In this document: positions 6,729-51,161 of the stretch, in pieces
How positions within the stretch are numbered: position 1 is the first letter of the stretch
How the letters are laid out: each line of letters opens with the position of its first letter
Source of the DNA: Thermomicrobiales bacterium
GTDB lineage: Bacteria; Chloroflexota; Chloroflexia; Thermomicrobiales; UBA6265
Direction: 5' to 3'
Length of the DNA stretch: 64,000 nucleotides
NCBI GenBank assembly: GCA_049841275.1
Contig: JASGDN010000036.1
Coordinates: 10,173 to 74,172, forward strand
Made by a program: the position numbers and the translations under genes
Notes under the pieces: generated by a model
Databases searched by the model: none
What the model saw: only the letters and a program-made list of their open reading frames with translations
Told to the model about the DNA's origin: nothing

Positions 6729-6931
6729 TCATGTCTGTGAGACAGGAATCCCCGCGGAACCAAGCCTCGTCATATTGTCCAGCGACGGGCGCGATCTTCG
6801 CCAAAGCAGCCGGTTTCGTGTAGGCTAAAGGTGACGTTCCGTTCGGACCCGTGCATCATCGTTCCTGGACACTTGGCCGATCGCACGTGCCCTCCGGACC
6901 CCGCTGTTCCTCGCTGGAGTCCCGCCCGGCC

Positions 6932-8826: not shown

Positions 8827-10521
8827 TCAGCGGATGCGCCCCACCACTTGCTCCGCCTCCTCGACGGTCAGCACCTCGCCGCCAAGCAGGGCGTTCATCT
8901 GGGTCGAGAACGTCAGCGATCCGGTCAACACCTCGCGCGGCGATCCGGTCGCAACGATCTCGCGATCGCCGAGCAGCACCACCGTTTGCGAGAATCGCGC
9001 CATCAGCTCGACATCGTGCGTCGCGATGACGACCGGCATGCCTTCCGCACAGAGGCCTCCGAGAAGCGTCATCAGCGCATCCTTGGCCCGCCAGTCCATG
9101 CCGCGCGTCGGCTCGTCTAGCAGCAGGATCGACGGCGAGCCGGCCAGCACCACCGCAATCGCGGCCCGCACGCGCTCCCCGACGCTGAGATCGCTCGGAT
9201 GACGGTTCGCCAGATCCGCAATCCCGATCCGTTCCAATACATCATCCACGTCATCGCGGGACATGGCGACCTGCCGCCGGGCTCCAGCCGCATCGATGGC
9301 CGCCTGGACATCGGCGCGCACCGTTTCGTGCCAGAGCAGCGCGGCGGGCTGTTGCGGCACATACCCGATCCCCCCAACCAGATCGCCGGGCGGCATCATC
9401 GACGCGCCGGCCCGAATCGTCACGCGTCCCTTGCGTGGCCGGTCGAGACCGGAGATAGCCCGCAGCAGGCTCGTCTTCCCGCTGCCGTTGCGGCCCATCA
9501 ATGCCACCATCTCGCCCATCCGAATGGAGAGCGAGATATCGCGCAGGACATCCCGGCCACCGCGCTGGACCGTGACCCGTTCGAGCCGGACAGCCTCCGG
9601 ACCAGATACTGTCGACTTGGGATATGTCGCCTGAGACACGCCTTGGATCAAGTCATCTGCGAGTCGTTCATCGCTATTTCGGGCTGATACGGGATATGTC
9701 GCTTCGAGCGCCCGGCGCCCCTCCTTCATCGTCAGCGGCAGTGGTGACCAGCCGACGCGGACGCCAAGCTGTGTCACCGGCGGCAGCGCCTCGTTCGGCA
9801 GCCGCGGGAGCATCGCAGCGACCGGGCCACCTGCAGTCCCGCCTCCGGGCAGCATCTCGACAACACGGTCCGCATGATGCAGCGTCCGTTCGAGCCGGTG
9901 CTCGGACATCAGGATCGTCGTCCCCAGATCGTCGTTGAGGCGCTTCACAACCGTCAGTACATCCTCGGCCGCCCACGGATCGAGCTGGCTCGTCGGCTCG
10001 TCGAGCACCAGCACACGGGGATGCAACGCCATCGCGGACGCGATCGCCACCCGCTGCCGCTCGCCGCCGGAGAGGGTCGCCGGTGACCGTTCGCGCAGGT
10101 GGCCGATCCCCAGGAGATCGAACGCCTCCTCCACCCGCTTGCGCATCGTCGCCCGTGGCACGCCGGCCTGTTCCATGCCGAACGCGATCTCATCGTCCAC
10201 GCGATCGGTGAGCATCTGCGCCTCGGGATCCTGGAAGACGAATCCGACGATGGCTGCCAGGTCGCGGGGACCGTGCGACCGCGTATCGAGCCCGGCGACG
10301 CGAACCACCCCGGCCAGCCGGCCGCCAGAAAAGTGCGGCACCAGCCCGTTCACCAGCCGCAGGAGCGTCGACTTCCCGGAGCCGGACTCTCCCACCACCA
10401 GCGTGAACGATGCCGTATCAAGGTGGAGAGAGACATCGCGCAAGGCCGGTTCCGATATGGCGGGATAGGCGTAGGAAACGTCCTCGATGGCAACAATGGA
10501 CGGGACAAGGGATGCCGTCAT
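8827..10521 (-). CDS. ECF transporter fused double ATPase (EcfA1-EcfA2/CbiO-like)
   Basis: Two ABC cassettes: GESGSGKST/LSGGERQR and GRNGSGKTS/LSVGERVR. The ATG at 10521 overlaps the stop of the upstream T component (ATGA). The tracked 944-aa ORF is an artefactual N-terminal extension. Confidence 0.9.
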   Translation of the reverse strand: MTASLVPSIVAIEDVSYAYPAISEPALRDVSLHLDTASFTLVVGESGSGKSTLLRLVNGLVPHFSGGRLAGVVRVAGLDTRSHGPRDLAAIVGFVFQDPEAQMLTDRVDDEIAFGMEQAGVPRATMRKRVEEAFDLLGIGHLRERSPATLSGGERQRVAIASAMALHPRVLVLDEPTSQLDPWAAEDVLTVVKRLNDDLGTTILMSEHRLERTLHHADRVVEMLPGGGTAGGPVAAMLPRLPNEALPPVTQLGVRVGWSPLPLTMKEGRRALEATYPVSARNSDERLADDLIQGVSQATYPKSTVSGPEAVRLERVTVQRGGRDVLRDISLSIRMGEMVALMGRNGSGKTSLLRAISGLDRPRKGRVTIRAGASMMPPGDLVGGIGYVPQQPAALLWHETVRADVQAAIDAAGARRQVAMSRDDVDDVLERIGIADLANRHPSDLSVGERVRAAIAVVLAGSPSILLLDEPTRGMDWRAKDALMTLLGGLCAEGMPVVIATHDVELMARFSQTVVLLGDREIVATGSPREVLTGSLTFSTQMNALLGGEVLTVEEAEQVVGRIR

Positions 10522-40551: not shown

Positions 40552-40665
40552 GGAACGAGACGGGAGGAACGGGAACGAGACGGGCCGACATTCCGTCCCA
40601 TTCAGGGCGTGTGGACCCGCCGAACCCCGCATACTATCAAGCGTACTCGGTCCAGCATACCTTGC

Positions 40666-40726
40666 CATGTCATTCTGAGCGCAGCGAAGAACCCCCGCGC
40701 GAAGCGCTTCCGGCGGAGCCGGAACC
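40666..40726 (+). repeat. Left inverted repeat of the GIY-YIG element
   Basis: catgtcattctgagcgcagcgaagaacccccgcgcgaagcgcttccggcggagccggaacc. Confidence 0.85.
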
Positions 40727-40841
40727 TGATGCCTGCATGCACGATCCCTCGCCCTTCAGCCCGTCCACCGGCAGAGGCGCTCGGCTACGTCCCGTCTTCG
40801 CCATACCAACTCCACGCGAGATCGTTCCACCGAGGATTCTA

Positions 40842-41084
40842 TTACTCAGTCAACGCGATCTTCCGCGCACGTAGCCACCCCTTCAGCTGCTTCTCCCGAG
40901 CGATCGCATCACGGACATCCCCAAACTCTTCGACATGGACCAGGCGGTTTGTTCGATATTGCTTTGAGAACCCCTCGGACTGGCCGGTCTTGTGCTGCCA
41001 AATCCGCCGCTCAAGATTGTTGGTCATACCGATATAGATCGTCCGCGACGGGCTGGCAACGATGTAGACGTAGTAGGCGTTCAT
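40842..41084 (-). CDS. GIY-YIG nuclease family protein (UPF0213-like, 80 aa)
   Basis: MNAYYVYIVASPSRTIYIGMTNNLERRIWQHK..REKQLKGW. The tracked 233-aa ORF is an over-extension through the repeat. Confidence 0.9.
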   Translation of the reverse strand: MNAYYVYIVASPSRTIYIGMTNNLERRIWQHKTGQSEGFSKQYRTNRLVHVEEFGDVRDAIAREKQLKGWLRARKIALTE

Positions 41085-41130
41085 CGTGAGAGCCCTTCGC
41101 ATTGGTGGAGCGTTGTTCATGCCAGCACCG

Positions 41131-41191
41131 GGTTCCGGCTCCGCCGGAGGCGCTTCGCGCGGGGGTCCTTCACTGCGTTCAGAATGACATG
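41131..41191 (-). repeat. Right inverted repeat of the GIY-YIG element
   Basis: The reverse complement reads catgtcattctgaacgcagtgaaggacccccgcgcgaagcgcctccggcggagccggaacc. Confidence 0.85.
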
Positions 41192-41301
41192 GGATGATGC
41201 GTGACGGCTGACCTCCGTATGGCCAGGTCGGGCTGGATCGTGCGTTCCGGGTGACGTACTGGGTTCGGCTGGGCAACGCCTCTGGATGCGACCTGAACGA
41301 T

Positions 41302-41815: not shown

Positions 41816-44395
41816 TCATCCGAAGGACGCAAATCCGTCCACCGCGAGTGTATCCAGCATCCGCGCTACTCGGCGCGCCATGACCGGGAAGAATGCCCGG
41901 CCAGAACCGAGCAGATCGTGATCCTGGATCGTCCCCTCGCCCACCGCGTCCCAGGCCGTTCGCACGGCCGCATGGGAAGGTTCGTCCGGATTCAGGCACC
42001 ACGCAAGAAACTGCAGCAACGGACGTTCCAGTCGCGACACCGATCCGGAGAACTTCGGCAGCACTTTCATCAGCACCGCAAGATCGAACGTTTCCTCCAA
42101 AGAGGCCTGTGGCACGACGGCCTTATACGCTCCAACGAACGCCGCAATCTCATCGAAGACGCGATAGCCGAACTGCATCTGCGACCGGGCAAGCAGGGTA
42201 TTCAGGGCCTGGAGCCACGTCCGGATTTCCGGGTGCGCATCCACGATTCCGGCAGTCTCGCCCTTGTCGATCCCGACGAACCGGCCACCGCGCGAGAAGG
42301 CATCCAGCAGGGCACGCCGCTCGTCATCGCCGATGACCGCCGGAACATCCCCAGTCCGGGTTGGTGGATAGTCAGTGAAATCCACCTCCGAAAGCTCGAT
42401 GGTGAACGCGCGGTCCAGCACCTTCGGGCTGAACGAGTGCGTCGTCTCGTCCATATTGACGGTACCAACGATGTAGAGATTCGGTGGGAGATGGACGGTG
42501 GCGGGCGGAACGTCGGCATCGTCCTGATCCTCGGCAGGCTCCGGCCGTTCAATCCGGATCGCCTCGCGCGTCCAACCCTCGGCGTCACGCCCGGATTCGA
42601 GCACGCTCAGGAGGTCCGCGAAGTAGTACTCGACGTGGGCGAGGTTCATCTCGTCGAGAATGACGAACCAGGCGACGCGGTCATCGGTCGGTCCTCGGAA
42701 GTTCTCGGCGGCGCGCAGGACGAAGCGCAGGAACTCGGTCCACTCGTACGATCCGAGGAGCGGATTGTGGTATCCGAGCAGCGCCCGGCTGTCCCGCCAG
42801 TCCGGCCGCACGGACAGGAACAGGTTATTGGGAAGGGCCAACTTGGGAGAGGTGGCCGCGATGTCGATTTCTCCGAGGCTCTCGACCAGAACTCTCGAGG
42901 AGTGAACTTTGAAGCCAACGACATCAGCCTCGTCATTCAGCTCAGGTTCAAGGTATAGGGAGCCACCTAGACCCACGTCCTTGAGCTGAGGACCCAGCAC
43001 CTTGGTAAGGCCGAGATTCACCAATGGCGATCCAGGAGACATGTCTTTGATGTGACGGAGTGATCCTACTGCCTGGGTTCCATCGAAGTCGAGCCTGACC
43101 TGCCGCGTTTCTCCGACTTCCGGGATTCCAAAGCGTCCAATCTGCTTCGACGGCAGATAGAGCCGGTTGTGCCTCAAGGTGTAAGGCTTGAGCGTGACGC
43201 GGATCAGACCTTCTCCGTCTATCACCTGCGGCTCATCTGTTTCCAAGTTGGGTAGACAGCGCACGAAGGCTTGAGCCAGCTTGCTCTTCCCAGTGCCACT
43301 GATGCCAGAGAGGATCACGAACCCCTTCGTCTGGAGCGCGGCATAGAAGGTCGCCAGCTGCCGGTCGGTGTACGTCAGCCCCTGACCCCGCACGCTCCGT
43401 CGCATGACATCAAGGGCGTTGGTCGGCGCACCCTCGTTGTGGACAACCTTCTTGCCCACGATCTCCGCGAACTGTGCCTCTGTGAGCTGGAGGATGGTTG
43501 CCTGGCGGCTGAGAAGGGAAGCAGTACTTTCGCTGAGGTGATCGAGTTGTGTGCGATCGACACCGGTCCATTCCACCTGACGGCGGTGTCGATAGGGGAA
43601 GTCGTCGTCGACTAGCTTGTAGTCCCCAACGATAGTCCCAACGCCGTAGAGTTCGCCACGCGCTGTCGAGAGCACTCGATCACCGATTTGCATGCCGTGG
43701 ATGAAATGCCAAAGCGCCAATGCCCCAGCAGGGGACACACCGGTCTCTCGACGAAGACCGGCGATAAACCCTTCTCGATCCGCTGGAAGGTCAGGAACAT
43801 GACCGACTTCCTCCCATCCAATCGCGATGAACGAACCATCACGAAAGGTGGACCAGTCTCGATTGCCTCGCCCCGCCGAAACTTTCCAGTATCGAGTACT
43901 CGATTTCGCAGCGACACTGCCATCGTTCACATATGCCGGGGTTGGAAGCTCCTGACCGGACCGATCCTCAATCTCCTTCAGGGCAGCGGGATCGAACGAT
44001 GCCGAACGACTTGACCGAGTTCGCACCGAGCGAGCCAACACCTCCACAACCTCTCGATGAGACTCCGCTACTTCTTGCCACTCCGTTTCGAACTCAAGAT
44101 GCGGGACACTCACCCGGGCAAGGTCAATCCCGAAGCTATCGGTACGTCGGAAGTCGTCTTTGACAACCTTGATGACGGGAGAACTCGGTGCAGGGGCCTT
44201 CAGCAGGATTTCCAGTCTCCCAGAACCGTCACGTTGATAGAGCCACGTCGTGTACTCACTGACGAACACAATCACGCGACCTTCGTAGAACTGAACCGAC
44301 CACGAGTTCGGATTGATCTCATGGGCAATTCGGATCGACTCGGCCATCTGCCGATAGATTGCCATTCGTGCGTGTTCCAGCTTGGGGTCAATCAT
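41816..44395 (-). CDS. McrB-like AAA+ (AAA_5) GTPase/ATPase with two N-terminal putative reader domains
   Basis: Walker A GISGTGKS, Walker B WFVILDEMNLAH, McrB-type signature GTVNMDETTHSFSPKVLDRAF. A PUA/EVE-like segment (YWKVSAGRGNRDW..IAIGW..GDRVLSTARGELYGVGTIVGDY..RRQVEW). The first ~150 aa are paralogous to the upstream gene. Confidence 0.88.
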   Translation of the reverse strand: MIDPKLEHARMAIYRQMAESIRIAHEINPNSWSVQFYEGRVIVFVSEYTTWLYQRDGSGRLEILLKAPAPSSPVIKVVKDDFRRTDSFGIDLARVSVPHLEFETEWQEVAESHREVVEVLARSVRTRSSRSASFDPAALKEIEDRSGQELPTPAYVNDGSVAAKSSTRYWKVSAGRGNRDWSTFRDGSFIAIGWEEVGHVPDLPADREGFIAGLRRETGVSPAGALALWHFIHGMQIGDRVLSTARGELYGVGTIVGDYKLVDDDFPYRHRRQVEWTGVDRTQLDHLSESTASLLSRQATILQLTEAQFAEIVGKKVVHNEGAPTNALDVMRRSVRGQGLTYTDRQLATFYAALQTKGFVILSGISGTGKSKLAQAFVRCLPNLETDEPQVIDGEGLIRVTLKPYTLRHNRLYLPSKQIGRFGIPEVGETRQVRLDFDGTQAVGSLRHIKDMSPGSPLVNLGLTKVLGPQLKDVGLGGSLYLEPELNDEADVVGFKVHSSRVLVESLGEIDIAATSPKLALPNNLFLSVRPDWRDSRALLGYHNPLLGSYEWTEFLRFVLRAAENFRGPTDDRVAWFVILDEMNLAHVEYYFADLLSVLESGRDAEGWTREAIRIERPEPAEDQDDADVPPATVHLPPNLYIVGTVNMDETTHSFSPKVLDRAFTIELSEVDFTDYPPTRTGDVPAVIGDDERRALLDAFSRGGRFVGIDKGETAGIVDAHPEIRTWLQALNTLLARSQMQFGYRVFDEIAAFVGAYKAVVPQASLEETFDLAVLMKVLPKFSGSVSRLERPLLQFLAWCLNPDEPSHAAVRTAWDAVGEGTIQDHDLLGSGRAFFPVMARRVARMLDTLAVDGFASFG
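44300..44351 (-). repeat. Nucleotide-level direct repeat, copy 1 (inside the McrB-like N-terminus)
   Basis: 45/52 nt identical to 45246-45297, including a 21-nt perfect run cggatcgactcggccatctgc. It encodes ..QMAESIR.AH.INPNSW... Confidence 0.8.
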
Positions 44396-45365
44396 CGTTG
44401 CCTCGTATCACATCTCTCGCATACGCCGGAAGCCCGAGCGGCTCCCGTGCATGGACCGACAGCACGCCAAGCAAATCGGCGTCGAACTTGCGAGCCGTCT
44501 TTACTTGCGTCCGCACACCACTCGCTATGGTTTCCACCAGTAGTTCGTGCGCTTCGGCGAAGTCTTCGAGGAAGTCATAGATATCGTGTCCTCGCGCCCA
44601 GAACCACCCCGCCTGACCGTCAAGGACGGTATCGTCTATCCGTTGCTCGTCCCATCTTCTCGCGACGGGTTCCGGAACGTCGTCCAACCATACACACAAC
44701 TCGATACGCCCGGGACGCTGTTTCCATTTCGCACAGGGAAGATCCGCGATCGTCACCACAACCGATCGCTGGCTCCTGTAGAACGACCATGACCGATCGT
44801 TCGTTCGCTGCGCCAACGCGATGGTCGATGCCAGCCGATCGGCGACGATCCACGGCACACCGTCGAGCACCCCTTCGTCGAACGTCGGATCGTCGAGATA
44901 CTCCGGCCTCGGAAGCGTCGCGCCAGCCAGGGCCTCGACTTCTCTCATGGCACGCTCATCGTACCGTCGCCAGTAGTTCGGTTTGCTTCTGGCAGCCGTC
45001 GAGATCGCACGGTGGTGCGATTCCCGGAGCGCCGGGAACTTCTTCACCATCTCCAATACCGGAATCCGAACCCGGTGAAAGTCGCGATGGATCTTGAAGT
45101 CCGTGTCCTCTACATCGAGATCGTCAATATCCGGAGTTGGGTCCTGAAGAATGAGGTCAACGTTCCCGGTCATGTCCTTGCGGGGCGAGAAGGAATAATA
45201 GGCGCCCACCAGCAGGATGACCTGCTTCTTCCAGTACATCACGAGCCACGAGTTCGGGTTGATGTCGTGCGCCAACCGGATCGACTCGGCCATCTGCTGG
45301 TAGACCGCCGTCCGCGCTCGATTCAGCGCCTCACTCGCCAACGGCACAGCCGCGACGTCGCTCAC
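44388..45365 (-). CDS. Hypothetical protein made of two tandem copies of the ~150-aa domain also found at the McrB-like N-terminus
   Basis: The GTG start at 45365 overlaps the upstream stop (GTGA), with GGGAGGAG upstream. The stop overlaps the McrB-like ATG by 8 nt. ARTAVYQQMAESIRLAHDINPNSWLV.. compares with ARMAIYRQMAESIRIAHEINPNSWSV... Confidence 0.65.
   Translation of the reverse strand: MSDVAAVPLASEALNRARTAVYQQMAESIRLAHDINPNSWLVMYWKKQVILLVGAYYSFSPRKDMTGNVDLILQDPTPDIDDLDVEDTDFKIHRDFHRVRIPVLEMVKKFPALRESHHRAISTAARSKPNYWRRYDERAMREVEALAGATLPRPEYLDDPTFDEGVLDGVPWIVADRLASTIALAQRTNDRSWSFYRSQRSVVVTIADLPCAKWKQRPGRIELCVWLDDVPEPVARRWDEQRIDDTVLDGQAGWFWARGHDIYDFLEDFAEAHELLVETIASGVRTQVKTARKFDADLLGVLSVHAREPLGLPAYARDVIRGNDD
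45246..45297 (-). repeat. Nucleotide-level direct repeat, copy 2
   Basis: See 44300-44351. Confidence 0.8.
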
Positions 45366-46966
45366 AATGCTCCTCCCATCACCAACGGAGACATCCCGAT
45401 CTCGCTCACACCGCTCAACCCCTCGTTCAGGACAACATCCGCGACCGTCGTGGGGGCTATCGTCCCGGCAGCCGGCCGGAACGTCGCACTCGTCCCCGGA
45501 TAGAGCACCACCGCTGCCCGCACCCCGAGCGCATCTCGATACGCGTGCATCTTCACCAGGTCGTCGTCCTTCGGATCGTACGACACCCCAGCCGGAAGTT
45601 CCCCATCCTCCAGGACCGCCGGGGAGGTCGAGGCCACCATCCGGAATTTCGCGTCGAAGGCGACGCGCACGCCCTCCGCCGGTATCCACACGTAGTCTGG
45701 CCGCAATCGCACGCCGGAATACCCTCGCTCCGACCAGTTGTAGACCAGCGTTCCCGCCGTCCCGAACCGGCATGCGAACCGATGCCGCAGGCCATCAACC
45801 CCATCGCCGACCGCGTCCATCGTCCCCGGCAGATCGAGCGCCGCGCCGATCCGGTCCGCCAGTTCGAAGAAGACCCAGTATTCGTAGAGCGTCGCGATAT
45901 CCCGGATGTCGATCGCATGCTCGAGCCGGTCGAACAGCGGTTGCCGCGCCCGCTGGAACGCGAACCAGAGGCGGGTCAGCTCGCGATAACCATCCCGCCG
46001 CTGCAACACCCGAGACTCCGCCGGAATGCGCACCAGCGGTCCGACTTCGGTAAACTGGCGATCCCGCACAAACGCCCGCAACGCGCCACGCAGGGCAGCC
46101 AGACGGATGCGGTCTGCCTCCGGAACCCGCCCGTACCAGGTGGCCTCCGGAATCGAGTCCGCCCAATCCAGCATTCGCCGCGCAACGTCGAGCACGAAGC
46201 GATTCTCCGGCACGTCCAGCGTCTCGATCGGACGCCGCTGGCGCACGCGCTCGGGACGGAGCCGGTGAGCAATCCTCTGCTCGGAAAGGTCATTGTGCGT
46301 CGCACCCCGCAACACGCTCAGCATCGCGTCGAGATCGATGTCGGACGCCTCGACCAGCCGCACATCCTCATACACCTCATGCAGGCGCCGAAGCGGGCGG
46401 TGCGCGATCGCCTGCATGGCGCGCATCAGATCCTGCCCGTAGCGACGAAAGAAGTGATAGGCAAACAGGAGATTCGGCGGACGCCGCGCTTCCCGCACCA
46501 GGCGGCCGGTCGGCGCAGCGACCTGGAACGGCATCGGCATCTGGCGCGCGAAGAGGTCGAGCAGCAGGCCATCGGTGAAGGCCAGCGACTCAAGCGGCGT
46601 TGCAAACTTCTCGGCGATCACCTCGACCGCCATCCCCGGTCCAAGGTGGCGACCAGCCTTCATCGGCTGAATCCGGGCAAACCCAAGCTGGTTCTCAAAT
46701 CGCACTTCGAACACGTCGTGACCGGCGATCAGCGGCCCGATGCGTGTCGAACCGACGACGAGCTCATCCGCACCTGCGACGGTCACACGATAGGTCGCCC
46801 ACTCGTGGAGGAAGCAAGCTGGTCGATGGGGAAGTCCATGATACGCCGCGAGCGCCGCCGCAACGTGCGCTTCGGAGAATGCATTCGCTCGGTCCCAGCG
46901 GACGATCGTTATCGCTCCCGGCAGAGGATGGGCGCCGTCGTCCACGACCGAGAAACCGGCTTCCAT
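45362..46966 (-). CDS. DUF2357-like N-domain fused to a PD-(D/E)xK nuclease (McrC-analogous effector)
   Basis: C-terminal nuclease core YEYWVFFEL..RPDYVWIP..VAFDAKFR..KMHAYRDAL. The long N-terminal region resembles the DUF2357 proteins that partner McrB-like ATPases (from memory). ATG 46966 with GAGGA upstream. Confidence 0.8.
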   Translation of the reverse strand: MEAGFSVVDDGAHPLPGAITIVRWDRANAFSEAHVAAALAAYHGLPHRPACFLHEWATYRVTVAGADELVVGSTRIGPLIAGHDVFEVRFENQLGFARIQPMKAGRHLGPGMAVEVIAEKFATPLESLAFTDGLLLDLFARQMPMPFQVAAPTGRLVREARRPPNLLFAYHFFRRYGQDLMRAMQAIAHRPLRRLHEVYEDVRLVEASDIDLDAMLSVLRGATHNDLSEQRIAHRLRPERVRQRRPIETLDVPENRFVLDVARRMLDWADSIPEATWYGRVPEADRIRLAALRGALRAFVRDRQFTEVGPLVRIPAESRVLQRRDGYRELTRLWFAFQRARQPLFDRLEHAIDIRDIATLYEYWVFFELADRIGAALDLPGTMDAVGDGVDGLRHRFACRFGTAGTLVYNWSERGYSGVRLRPDYVWIPAEGVRVAFDAKFRMVASTSPAVLEDGELPAGVSYDPKDDDLVKMHAYRDALGVRAAVVLYPGTSATFRPAAGTIAPTTVADVVLNEGLSGVSEIGMSPLVMGGAL

Positions 46967-46973
46967 GCGTTCC

Positions 46974-47474
46974 TCAGAAGAGTTGCGCGACAAGCAACGC
47001 GATCAGCCCCAGCACGACGAGGATGCTGACGATCACCTGCCAGCGTCTCCCGATCGGAAAGCCCGCCGACGCAGGGGAAGCCTCCTCGCTCACTGCCGGG
47101 CCGGCGTGCGCGATCGCGGGAAGAGCCACCTGCGCGCGCAACTCCTTCGGAGAGGCCATCCGCTGCTGCTGGTCCCGCTCCAGCTCCACGGCCAGAACGT
47201 AGTCGCTCAGTTGAGCGGGATCTGCCTCCGTCCAGCCCAGGTCGAAGGGCGACCACCGGTTGTCCAGCTTGATGATCGTCTGCAAGGACGCCGACTCATC
47301 CTGCTCCGCCGCCTGCAACGCCAGATCGTACGAACGCTGGTCGCGGCGAAGATCGTCGGCAAGGTCGCGGCGCACGCTCTCCACGTCCCGGCCCTGATAG
47401 ACCGGATGCCAGGCGAAGAACGCACGCGTCCCTCCGGATGGGGTGGCCGAAGGCGATGAAAGGTGATCCGTCAC
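46974..47474 (-). CDS. Tail-anchored membrane protein (first gene of the operon), function unknown
   Basis: 166 aa from GTG 47474 with AGGAG 5 nt upstream. Single C-terminal helix WQVIVSILVVLGLIALLVAQLF. The stop lies 7 nt before the nuclease ATG. Confidence 0.5.
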   Translation of the reverse strand: MTDHLSSPSATPSGGTRAFFAWHPVYQGRDVESVRRDLADDLRRDQRSYDLALQAAEQDESASLQTIIKLDNRWSPFDLGWTEADPAQLSDYVLAVELERDQQQRMASPKELRAQVALPAIAHAGPAVSEEASPASAGFPIGRRWQVIVSILVVLGLIALLVAQLF

Positions 47475-48446: not shown

Positions 48447-51161
48447 CTACAACGCGACGGTCCCCTCGTAGACGAGGTCCCGGCACCGCGCCTCGACTTC
48501 CGCCGGGTCGATGGCAAGCCGCGCCATGCCCGTCTCCTGCGCCGACTGCGCGACCGCCGCCGCGACCCGCGGCGAGACGCGCAGATCGAGGCTGTCCGGG
48601 ATCAGGAACTCCGGGCTCAGCTTCTCCGCCGACACGAGGTCGGCGATGGCGTAGGCTGCCGCAATCTTCATGTCGTCGCTGATCTGCCGCGCCTTCACAT
48701 CAAGCGCCCCCCGGAAGACGCCGGGGAAGGCCAGCGAGTTGTTGACCTGGTTCGGGAAATCGCTGCGCCCGGTCGCGACGGCAAACGCGCCCGCCTCCTT
48801 CGCCAGGTCGGGCATGATCTCCGGCGTCGGGTTCGCCAGCGCGAAGATCAGCGGATCGGGCGCCATCGAACGCACCATCTCCTGCGTCAGTGTGCCCGGT
48901 GCCGAGAGGCCGATGAAGACGTCCATGCCCGGCAGCACGTCCGCAAGCTTGCCCGTCTTGCCCTCGTGATTCGTCACCTCGGCGATGGCCCGCTTGGACG
49001 CGTCCATGTGACCCGGCCGGTTCGCGTAAATCGCGCCGGAACGGTCGCAGAGGATGATATCCGCCGCGCCGAGGACATTGAGCAGCTTGGCCACCGCGAT
49101 CCCCGCCGCGCCCGCGCCATTGATGACGATCTTGAGGTCCTTGATCTCGCAGTTCCGCAGCCGTGCCGCATTGATCAGCCCGGCAGCGACCACGATGGCG
49201 GTCCCGTGCTGGTCGTCGTGGAAGACCGGCATATCGAGCCGCGCCCGCAGCTTCTCCTCGATCTCGAAGCAGCGCGGCGCGGCGATGTCCTCCAGGTTGA
49301 TGCCGCCGAGCGACGGCGCGATGGCCGCCACCGTCTCCACGATATCGTCCGGATCGCGCTCGGCCAGGCAGATCGGAAACGCTTCCACCCCGGCAAGGGT
49401 CTGGAAGAGCACCGCCTTGCCCTCCATCACCGGCAGGCCGGCGGTCGGCCCGATATCGCCGAGACCGAGCACCGCCGAACCGTCCGTCACGATGCCCACG
49501 AGGTTCCCCTTCGCCGTGAACTCCGTCACGCGGGAGACATCATCGCGGATGACGTGCGCAGGCACGAGGGCGCGCGGCGGCACGTAGAGCAGGTTCAGGA
49601 TGTGGTGGTCCTTGATGGGGATCTTGCTCCGGATCTCGAGCACGCCGTGATTGCGCTCGCGGAGGTCGATCGCCTCCTCGCGGAAGGTACGCCCCTCCTG
49701 CCGCGTGCTCGGGCGCGCCGGATCGAGCCGCCCCTCGTACACGAACCGCCGCGTCTTTTCGGCGACCTCCTCCGGCGTCACGTCGCGCGTGGCCTCGCCG
49801 GCTTCGATCGCACCGCGCACCACCGCCGCCGCGATGGCTGGCGCCACCCGGAAGTCGAAGAGCGCCGGCACGATGTACTCCTCGTGCAACTGCTCGCCCG
49901 GCACCATATCGGCCAGCGCCCGCGCGGCATGGAGCATCATCCGCAGGCGGATGTTGCGGGAACCGCTGTCGAGCAGCCCCCGGAAGAAACCGGGGAAGAC
50001 CAGCGAGACATCCATCATGTTCGCGTAGTCGGAACGCCCGGTCGCAATCACCCGGGCACCACCGGCCCGCGCCACGGACGGCAGGATTTCCGGGATCGGC
50101 ACCGCCAATGCGAAGACGATCGGATCGGGCGCCATCGACCGGATCATCGCCTCGGTCACGATGTCGCCCGTGGAGAGCCCCACGAAGACATCCGCGCCCA
50201 CCAGCATGTCGCTCAGCGACCCCTGCTGCTGCGACCCGTTCGTCTCCTTGGCGACGTAAGACTTCGCCCAGTTCATGCGCTCGCCACGGCTGCGGTAGAT
50301 CGCCCCGGCACGGTCGCAGACGACAAGGTTCTTCACGCCGGCCCGCACGAGCAGGCGGGCGACACCGATCCCGGCGATACCCGCGCCACTGAGCACGACC
50401 TTGACCTTGTCGAGGTCCTTTCCCACCACCTTCAACGCGTTGTAGAGCGCGCCAAGCACGAGGATGGCCGTGCCGTGGTGCTGGTTGGAGAAGACCGGGA
50501 TATCCGCGCCCTTGTCGAGGTTGTCGGCGATGGTGAAGGCGCGCGGCGAGGAAATGTCGTCGAGGCAGATCGCCCCGAAGGTCGGCGCAATGGCGATACC
50601 GGTCTCCACGATCTCCCCGGCATCCGTGGTGTTGACGCAAATCGGCACCGCATCGACCCCGGCGAACGTCTTGAAGATGACGCTCTTGCCCTCGGCCACC
50701 GGCAGCTCGGCCTCCGGCGGCCCTCCTTCGCGGCCGAAGAGGTCGGAGCCATCGGAGAGGATGGCAACCGTGTTGCCACGGCAGGTGAGGTCGTAGGAAC
50801 GCCCGAGGTCATGATGGATGGCCATGCAGGCTTCCGCCACACCCGGCGTGTAGACGAGCGAGAGCATCGCCCGGTCGCGCACCGGCACCTTGGACGCGAC
50901 GCCGATCAGGCCGCGATAGCGGCGGCGATAGTCGAGCCCTTCGTCGTTCTCGTCGTAGACGAAGGTCCCTTCCGGCATCGACGCAGGTGTGCCATTCCGG
51001 CGCAGGACGAAGGAGATGGGAGCATCGCTGCGGTCGGTGAAGGCGTCATCCGCCAGTTCGGCGGTCTCGTCGATGCCCATCGGGGGAGCATCCTCGCCTG
51101 ACACGACGGAATCATCCGTCACGAGCACCGATGTCTCCTGCTCCGGTGTTGAGCGAGTCAT
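48447..51161 (-). CDS. Tandem double malic-enzyme-like protein (two complete malic enzyme units fused, 904 aa)
   Basis: Unit 1: VYTPGVAEAC, AEGKSVIF, LDDIS, VFSNQHHGTA, SGAGIAGIG. Unit 2: LYVPPRALV, TDGSAVLGLGDIG, MEGKAVLF, NLEDI, VFHDDQHGTA, NGAGAAGIA. Confidence 0.85.
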   Translation of the reverse strand: MTRSTPEQETSVLVTDDSVVSGEDAPPMGIDETAELADDAFTDRSDAPISFVLRRNGTPASMPEGTFVYDENDEGLDYRRRYRGLIGVASKVPVRDRAMLSLVYTPGVAEACMAIHHDLGRSYDLTCRGNTVAILSDGSDLFGREGGPPEAELPVAEGKSVIFKTFAGVDAVPICVNTTDAGEIVETGIAIAPTFGAICLDDISSPRAFTIADNLDKGADIPVFSNQHHGTAILVLGALYNALKVVGKDLDKVKVVLSGAGIAGIGVARLLVRAGVKNLVVCDRAGAIYRSRGERMNWAKSYVAKETNGSQQQGSLSDMLVGADVFVGLSTGDIVTEAMIRSMAPDPIVFALAVPIPEILPSVARAGGARVIATGRSDYANMMDVSLVFPGFFRGLLDSGSRNIRLRMMLHAARALADMVPGEQLHEEYIVPALFDFRVAPAIAAAVVRGAIEAGEATRDVTPEEVAEKTRRFVYEGRLDPARPSTRQEGRTFREEAIDLRERNHGVLEIRSKIPIKDHHILNLLYVPPRALVPAHVIRDDVSRVTEFTAKGNLVGIVTDGSAVLGLGDIGPTAGLPVMEGKAVLFQTLAGVEAFPICLAERDPDDIVETVAAIAPSLGGINLEDIAAPRCFEIEEKLRARLDMPVFHDDQHGTAIVVAAGLINAARLRNCEIKDLKIVINGAGAAGIAVAKLLNVLGAADIILCDRSGAIYANRPGHMDASKRAIAEVTNHEGKTGKLADVLPGMDVFIGLSAPGTLTQEMVRSMAPDPLIFALANPTPEIMPDLAKEAGAFAVATGRSDFPNQVNNSLAFPGVFRGALDVKARQISDDMKIAAAYAIADLVSAEKLSPEFLIPDSLDLRVSPRVAAAVAQSAQETGMARLAIDPAEVEARCRDLVYEGTVAL

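Follow-up and report, generated by a model that had tools for sequence, protein, structure and literature searches.

Gene organization of the locus

The window analyzed here is the whole 64,000-nt stretch of a Thermomicrobiales genome (GenBank assembly GCA_049841275.1, contig JASGDN010000036.1, forward-strand positions 10,173 to 74,172), and all coordinates are counted from its first letter. Three genes, B, C and D, lie head to tail on its minus strand. D encodes a McrB-like NTPase, B its predicted McrC-type partner, and C a separate protein that consists of two copies of a new domain of about 150 residues. A third copy of the same domain forms the N-terminus of D. The domain and the role of C are the subject of this report. 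The genes and their parts are listed here.

45362 to 46993, minus strand: gene B, McrC-type partner of 543 aa, with an N-terminal DUF2357 part and a PD-(D/E)xK nuclease
44388 to 45365, minus strand: gene C, separate 325-aa protein in which the new ~150-aa domain is present twice
44877 to 45341, minus strand: C copy 1 (residues ~9-163), from BLASTP to D(1-160) and an independent profile (8e-38)
44403 to 44876, minus strand: C copy 2 (residues ~164-321), which has diverged the most, independent profile 7e-24
45246 to 45297, minus strand: conserved-motif DNA in C copy 1, QMAESIRLAHDINPNSW
41816 to 44395, minus strand: gene D, McrB-like NTPase of 859 aa, with the new domain, a middle domain, an AAA+ core with an insert, and a C-terminal region
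43910 to 44395, minus strand: N-terminal copy of the new domain in D (residues 1-162), from BLASTP and the independent profile (2e-37)
44300 to 44351, minus strand: conserved-motif DNA in D, QMAESIRIAHEINPNSW
43406 to 43903, minus strand: D middle domain (residues ~165-330), matched by the PADLOC candidate PDC-S02 profiles (3.6e-15)
42821 to 43240, minus strand: insert of ~140 aa in the D NTPase between Walker A and Walker B (residues ~386-525), hypervariable

The start codon of C is the GTG at 45365, which overlaps the stop codon of B as GTGA, and GGGAGGAG, located 5 nt upstream of this start, is C's own Shine-Dalgarno sequence. D starts with the ATG at 44395, overlaps the end of C by 8 nt and has GAGG upstream. 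The overlapping start and stop codons couple C to both B and D in the window. With its own Shine-Dalgarno sequence and these overlaps, C has the appearance of an expressed gene. Between 41500 and 47700, no sites resembling promoters or terminators were detected.

Genes B and D as a predicted McrBC-type pair

The first-pass annotation of the window, made from the sequence alone, had taken D for a McrB-like ATPase, and this was borne out. D carries a Walker A motif (GISGTGKS, 43283-43306), a Walker B motif (FVILDEMN, 42644-42667) and an NxD signature (VNMDE, 42446-42460, in T-V-N-M-D-E-T at D residues 644-650), and it matches the PADLOC candidate PDC-M26A at 2.6e-40. The match to Pfam AAA_5 (2.5e-4, 21.5 bits) lies slightly below the cut-off of 22, and a weak match to the Thermococcus gammatolerans McrB GTPase 6ut3 was observed (E=0.0056). 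Plasmid relatives of D are labelled AAA family ATPase, hypothetical protein or DNA methyltransferase; one of these plasmid matches also overlaps a DUF2357 gene. Gene B matched DUF2357 (1.6e-21) and PDDEXK_7 (5.5e-10), both over the Pfam gathering thresholds, and its nuclease motifs (D...D-x-K) are complete, with RPDYVW at 45686-45703 and FDAKF at 45644-45658. Because both families are matched and these motifs are intact, the predicted architecture of B is that of McrC.

Passages of the paper by Bell, Koonin et al. (2024, eLife, PMC11090510) that treat the NxD branch of McrB-like GTPases define it by a signature shortened to N-x-D, usually with E or D next. No member of the branch is known to have been characterized. 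The signature of D agrees with the definition given in those passages, an assignment made from the motif and without phylogenetic placement. D has the NTPase motifs, and its DUF2357 and PD-(D/E)xK partner B lies on the same strand with overlapping codons. By these signs, B-C-D is a predicted McrBC-type (Type IV-like) defense operon of the NxD branch.

Two further parts of D were compared among relatives at the same site. The middle domain matched the PDC-S02 profiles only, with no match in Pfam or among PDB sequences; it is missing from the allele of L008 and is 51–60% identical in L010 and L012. The insert in the NTPase had no Pfam match. It is 29% identical to the insert of the L001/L009 allele, whereas all other D segments are 85–98% identical to that allele, those flanking the insert at ~90–98%, and across same-locus alleles its identity ranges from 27 to 48%. 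The insert resembles a second specificity module, either exchanged or hypervariable; insertions in the NTPase domain of the NxD branch are described as frequent and as "likely encoding specificity domains" in passages of PMC11090510. The middle domain may be PUA/EVE-like and a B3/AbrB-like nature was considered for the insert, and neither assignment was backed by Pfam or PDB sequence searches.

A new domain present in three copies

It had been proposed in the first-pass annotation that a domain of about 150 residues is present three times, twice in C and once fused to D, and BLASTP and an independent hidden Markov model (HMM) agree on this. D(1-160) aligned with C copy 1 at 37% identity (E=1e-31) and with C copy 2 at 24% (E=5e-8), and the two copies of C aligned with each other at 21% (E=0.002). 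The independent HMM was made from 69 sequences of the family, all from other organisms and none from the window, and detected C 17-160, C 173-317 and D 9-158 at the E-values listed above. The invariant W, the His of helix 2 and the P-x-Y at the C-terminal end are kept in C copy 2, where Q replaces the motif His.

AlphaFold2 modeled D(1-165) from an alignment of 73 sequences with a predicted local distance difference test score (pLDDT) of 93.2 and a predicted template modeling score (pTM) of 0.89. In this model the domain opens with a long helix, continues with six strands and closes with two helices, the first long and the second short. Conserved throughout the family are A18, I21, A24, H25, N28, P29, S31, W32 (100%), H113, H134, G147, L150, P151, P153 (100%) and Y155, and the motifs of the domain are AH-x-NP-x-SW, a His in helix 2, and LP-x-P-x-Y.

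The domain had been left without a family, and the libraries searched here leave it so. C had no match in Pfam, NCBIfam, PADLOC or PHROGs; the domain itself had none in these four or among PDB sequences, where two profiles found nothing below E=0.29. No EVE, ASCH, YTH or SRA profile of Pfam matched the new domain in the window, and PF12102 (DUF3578/ADAM, MrcB_N) matched neither C nor D. PF28530 (DUF8426) is recorded for the D protein of L001, but DUF8426 is probably not the new domain because the precomputed Pfam entries of the C orthologues are empty. In the literature only McrBC census papers were found. The passages of PMC11090510 that were consulted contain no description of the domain, and it may have been named in papers that are not searchable by sequence.

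The domain family and its fusion partners

A definition of the family by profile search, as proposed in the first-pass annotation, was carried out. D(1-165) alone gave no matches in a word-indexed protein search, and a search of the same kind with the 73-sequence profile gave five proteins only. C has just five close homologues in the word-indexed database, all of them from Thermomicrobiales-type metagenome bins and either without a name or labelled hypothetical protein, and no relatives of C were found in plasmid or phage collections. A scan of genome collections, which used a narrower alignment and relied on one motif pattern, returned close relatives only. An exhaustive profile search covering 1.84 billion representatives was needed to reveal the family. 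This search returned 221 representatives at E<=1e-3, with a full-length copy (at least 110 profile positions covered) in 118 of the best 150. Roughly a quarter of the top 150 were spurious, being multi-stretch matches, at profile positions ~100-145, to very long repetitive proteins, and were excluded.

The contexts of the family include effector fusions. A Pfam scan of 90 members found no shared family that could be the new domain itself. The families that were found are those of effectors or partners, recorded by presence and not by position within the proteins: AAA_5 in 22, HNH in 9, EVE in 4, NOV_C in 3, GmrSD_N and HNH_2 in 2 each, and MrcB_N and HEPN_Swt1 in 1 each. Inspection of the sequences showed some members placed after the C-terminal end of a helicase-like protein, and one member is a single HNH fusion gene amid housekeeping genes. 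The NTPases fused to the new domain are of both the NxD and the canonical McrB types. P0036 has both PF12102 (MrcB_N) and the new domain, the latter at residues 105-257.

Among proteins of the clade with the D-type NTPase, the new domain is mostly found in arrays fused to that NTPase. Two copies are fused to the same NTPase as D in P0007, P0012, P0016 and P0019, three copies are fused to a D-type NTPase in P0008, and copies are combined with the D middle domain in P0010, P0024 and P0041. The total in the window, three copies and a middle domain, is that of the fused arrays, but it is spread over two genes.

The new domain is a real, widespread and highly variable module, with a fusion repertoire like that of the exchangeable reader domains in Type IV restriction enzymes. 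In the first-pass annotation the N-terminal domain was cast as the target reader. Its N-terminal position, the range of its effectors and its hypervariability all fit a reader or sensor, so that much of the claim stands. However, since D also has a middle domain and a hypervariable NTPase insert, the new domain is not necessarily the sole reader.

Alleles at the same chromosomal site

The same site was located in relatives by synteny, with the malic enzyme, acetyltransferase, '166-aa', '157-aa' and PHP genes as anchors. The gene content at this site takes four states. B-C-D is found in the window, L001 and L009; on the short contig of P0002, where B is not visible, C is followed by an overlapping downstream gene. 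L012 and L010 have B and a single gene for a protein with the N-terminal domain, the middle domain and the NTPase, a layout shared by L011 with an in-frame stop. In L008, a GTDB Thermomicrobiales bin, B is accompanied by a gene for the N-terminal domain and NTPase without the middle domain. Finally, C is present alone in L002-L005, L006 and L007.

The gene that follows B in the second and third of these states begins V-S-D/E, with the same GTGA-type overlap as C. At the DNA level, homology of the window with these alleles runs from B into the first ~120 nt of C, stops at or just after the conserved motif, and resumes inside D; the blastn breakpoints lie at window positions 45237 (L008) and 45246 (L012). 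Because homology enters the start of C from B, ends at the motif and resumes in D, and because the overlap and the start are the same, C occupies the ancestral 5' end of the McrB-like gene. C had been described as a free tandem-reader paralog encoded just upstream of D. The tandem pair and its upstream position are as described, but C is better viewed as the detached front of a split sensor array, since it sits where the McrB-like gene of relatives begins and since homologues carry fused arrays of two or three domains.

NTPase cores are 79–90% identical between the alleles, and N-terminal domains are 27–38% identical. The window and L001/L009 differ almost solely in the D insert. C copy 1 is 35% identical to the D domain and 38% identical to the N-terminal domain of L008. 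C copy 2 is 12–21% identical to the N-terminal domains of other same-locus proteins, and its nearest relative among those compared is the single N-terminal domain of P0015 (27%). These comparisons suggest that sensor cassettes have been exchanged over a motor and nuclease backbone that stayed conserved, rather than a recent duplication.

The G+C content is 0.58–0.62 across B-C-D as compared to ~0.65–0.67 in the flanks. It goes down to 0.58 within 43000-45000, which covers C and the 5' half of D, and the low value there is compatible with horizontal exchange of sensor cassettes.

Interrupted D frames were observed in three relatives. In L011 an in-frame stop at 6879-6883 lies between the middle domain and the NTPase, which may mean a further, independent split of the gene, or else a pseudogene or an error of assembly. 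In L001 (13250) and L009 (8277) the D frame stops after residue ~759 while tblastn similarity continues, to residue 859 in L009; this may reflect truncation, a frameshift or an error of sequencing.

The conserved motif in C and D

The motif DNA of D and that of C copy 1 (44300-44351 and 45246-45297) had been reported to share 45 of 52 nt, including a 21-nt identical run, and to point to recent duplication or gene conversion. The DNA figures were reproduced. An identical run of 20–21 nt is also unusual, as cross-genome runs reach 8–12 nt against the window D motif and at most 15 nt against the C motif, and to this extent the data favor a recent duplication of the C and D copies or their homogenization by gene conversion. 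However, the 52-nt stretch encodes the best-conserved motif of the domain family, QMAESIRxAHxINPNSW, and its total identity is no higher than between genomes that cannot have converted. The window D motif matches the window C motif at 44 of 51 positions, the C motifs of D-less genomes at 41–43 of 51 and the single fused gene of L008 at 43 of 51; between copies in different genomes, some lacking one partner, the values are 40–47 of 51. Gene conversion is not needed, because the motif DNA identity equals that between different genomes. Outside the motif, C copy 1 and the D copy are ~50% identical in DNA and ~35% in protein, the three window copies are 16–37% identical to one another, and C copy 1 is no closer to the D domain than to the N-terminal domain of L008. 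The claim of duplication or conversion is already largely refuted, and we regard either event as very improbable.

The conserved motif block may have acted as a recombination anchor, since the allele breakpoints lie there. An origin of C through recombination between motif copies, with deletion or insertion of a cassette, was considered on the basis of P0006, which has a C-length leader and a D-type body. Neither the identities of the leaders (24/40 vs 20/32) nor comparisons of their DNA were discriminating.

C-only lineages and selection on C

No trace of B was found at the locus in the C-only lineages, and remnants of D follow C. In L002 the sequence past the C stop codon encodes FPVMAMRVCRMLDTLAVEGFASFG, the family-conserved C-terminus of D (tblastn to D 832-859, E=6e-8), while L006 keeps VVLDTLATEGFASFG and L007 keeps a degraded MPDTVEAKGCASFG. 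These stubs correspond to the last 14–28 codons of D. Because they remain after C, the C-only state is derived, through loss of B and nearly all of D, and their different end points suggest separate loss events. Stub differences from the window at first, second and third codon positions number 5, 4 and 19 in L002, 3, 2 and 10 in L006, and 3, 4 and 9 in L007. This concentration at third positions indicates that D remained a coding gene while much of the divergence accumulated and that its loss came late. Part of the constraint measured on C is therefore older than the loss of D.

The open reading frame (ORF) of C is intact in six lineages, whose orthologues are 66–90% identical. The ratio of nonsynonymous to synonymous substitution rates (dN/dS) is 0.15–0.25 for every pair and in both copies, and between C-only lineages it is 0.18–0.23 at dS values of 1.2–1.6. 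C is under purifying selection. These values bear on whether C is a non-functional remnant of a longer McrB-like gene, made by a stop codon. Such an origin would suit the fused arrays that are the norm in the family and the in-frame stop seen within the D gene of L011, but it is hard to join to an ORF kept intact and constrained in both copies, to a Shine-Dalgarno sequence of C's own, or to a C/D boundary conserved in L001, L009 and the P0002 contig. We consider a remnant extremely improbable.

A different possibility is that C works independently, as a stand-alone binder of a ligand or nucleic acid (which might coat or block foreign DNA, for example) or as a regulator, and that its position in the operon is a by-product of shuffling. 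This would explain why three lineages (L002-5, L006 and L007) hold an intact C with no B and with D stubs that end at different points, and why dN/dS remains low between them. However, the third-position excess in the stubs places much of the constraint on C before the loss of D, and in the window C is coupled to both neighbors by start and stop codons. A true stand-alone form outside the clade of the window is not established; many of the short matches are fragments of short contigs. An independent role for C is, in our judgment, doubtful.

A proposed role for C

We tentatively propose that C serves the B-D machine in trans, as a subunit with two ligand-binding domains, a reading to which we give a little less than an even chance. 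The new domain would recognize the target or trigger of the B-D system, which we infer to be, most likely, foreign or modified nucleic acid. An array of one to three tandem copies is normally N-terminal on the NTPase in this protein family, and in the window this array is split, with the first two copies forming C at the ancestral 5' end and the third copy left on D; cassette shuffling and gene fission would have produced this split. C would then bind its ligand through two domains of different specificity and so might widen or tune what the D hexamer and the B nuclease act upon, possibly through physical contact with D. A functional link between C and D is suggested because their parts are fused elsewhere (the Rosetta-stone argument). 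C is read as a sensor subunit because of the relation to fused arrays, the translational coupling, the purifying selection, and the hypervariability expected of a specificity determinant.

Several observations weigh against this proposal. Foldseek searches with the domain and tandem models, a check suggested in the first-pass annotation, found no significant structural neighbor. The best matches of the single domain were at E=0.17 with TM <0.3 in the PDB and at E=0.029 with TM 0.24 in BFVD, and no PUA-like structure was among the Foldseek matches. The tandem C model gave weak matches to LAGLIDADG proteins (E>=0.008, TM 0.12–0.17), T4 MotA (probability 0.66, TM 0.38) and YjbR. All of these (best E=0.008, TM 0.12–0.39) fall short of the TM >0.5 and same topology expected of a shared LAGLIDADG or double-wing fold. 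LAGLIDADG proteins, MotA and YjbR are DNA binders with a sheet on helices, and we treat the resemblance as a lead, not a match.

The AlphaFold2 model of full-length C (pLDDT 86, pTM 0.59) has two confident domains, between which residues 164-166 form a linker of low confidence. As modeled, the two domains lack a fixed mutual packing, and no docking mode of free C on D is predicted. Position 134 is H in 77% of family members and F or Y in all three window copies, which hints at a His-based site in the wider family that was lost in the clade of the window. The window copies are also acidic, with isoelectric points (pI) of 5.0–6.0 (C has a net charge of -9.5 and a pI of 5.4) against a family median of 6.7, and acidic copies are not expected of a general DNA binder. 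Finally, B and D were repeatedly and tightly excised while C stayed intact, which suggests that the usefulness of C does not depend entirely on its two neighbors.

The acidity of C would also suit a negative regulator or decoy. In this antitoxin-like role C would occupy the ligand or the docking site and keep B-D off until infection, and an orphan C would be a leftover immunity gene. Translational coupling directly upstream of D and the persistence of C after deletion of B and D, as with orphan antitoxins, are in keeping with such a role. However, many homologues have these tandem domains in covalent fusion with the NTPase, which is hard to square with an inhibitor, and alleles at the same locus with B and one fused gene, but no C, argue against a B-D activity that C must neutralize to prevent lethality. 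Decay would be expected of an orphan antidote, but dN/dS of C is ~0.2 between C-only lineages. We consider it unlikely that C is a decoy. A low probability is likewise given to the proposal that the domain is a sensor with a new fold, for foreign nucleic acid or another infection cue, shared by many Type IV-like defense enzymes, and that C is an exchangeable, HsdS-like specificity subunit that makes McrBC a system of three components and whose nuclease-independent activity, protective or regulatory, would explain its retention once motor and nuclease are gone.

Relation to known systems

Compared to the NxD-branch McrBC systems of Type IV, as described in passages of PMC11090510, the operon has the same two-gene core, variable N-terminal modules, an insertion in the NTPase, and plasmid relatives fused to methyltransferases. 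It differs from the systems in those passages in that the McrC-like gene comes first, the N-terminal module is unnamed in the libraries tested, and part of the module array forms a third gene. The features of CoCoNuT systems are absent, as there are no long coiled coils N-terminal to the D NTPase and no HEPN or extra nuclease gene in the operon.

With the readers of Type IV enzymes (EVE/PUA-like, SRA, YTH, DUF3578/ADAM, and the B3-like domain of LlaJI.R1) the new domain shares a position N-terminal to McrB, HNH, GmrSD and Mrr-like effectors and the same promiscuous fusions, and it co-occurs with EVE and MrcB_N in single proteins. In contrast to these readers, it shows no detected similarity in sequence or structure, and two or three diverged tandem copies are common. 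LAGLIDADG proteins, the C-terminal "double wing" of T4 MotA and YjbR are alike in having helices on one face of an antiparallel sheet. Matches of the tandem model to them have E-values of 0.008–0.5, TM of 0.12–0.39 and probabilities of at most 0.66, and we take their order of helices and strands to differ from that of the new domain.

HsdS of Type I restriction-modification systems has two diverged recognition domains, is encoded beside motor and nuclease genes, and exchanges cassettes at conserved blocks. C, if it is a specificity subunit, would be alike in its two diverged domains, in its place beside motor and nuclease genes, and in varying by cassette exchange at a conserved block; there is no homology and no methyltransferase here.

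What is known here is the McrBC-like Type IV restriction system of the NxD branch; what is new is the sensor domain, its habit of forming tandem arrays, and a split-off third gene that is able to persist alone. What a Type IV restriction enzyme is depends on the target that its reader domain recognizes, and new readers have opened classes of DNA modification to detection and have sometimes become tools of epigenomics. The domain described here is unannotated in the libraries tested, has a confident model without a structural neighbor, occurs with at least five effector types, and is the most variable part of the same-site alleles. Because one locus comes in three forms, fused, split in two genes, and reduced to the sensor, it represents a natural experiment on whether a McrBC motor can take its specificity from a free subunit.

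Other features of the window

Inverted repeats of 78 nt, 88% complementary, lie at 40665-40742 and 41115-41192 and flank a small GIY-YIG nuclease gene, whose ORF is within 40842-41300 on the minus strand (Pfam 7.4e-16). The cassette lies between the '157-aa' and PHP genes. Because these two genes are merely ~90 nt apart in L002, the GIY-YIG unit looks like a small inserted mobile cassette.

At 48447-51161 on the minus strand, a 904-aa protein comprises two complete malic-enzyme units (malic and Malic_M, twice) in a single polypeptide. The double malic-enzyme protein is kept in relatives, at 3702-6422 in L001 and at 5156-7846 in L002.

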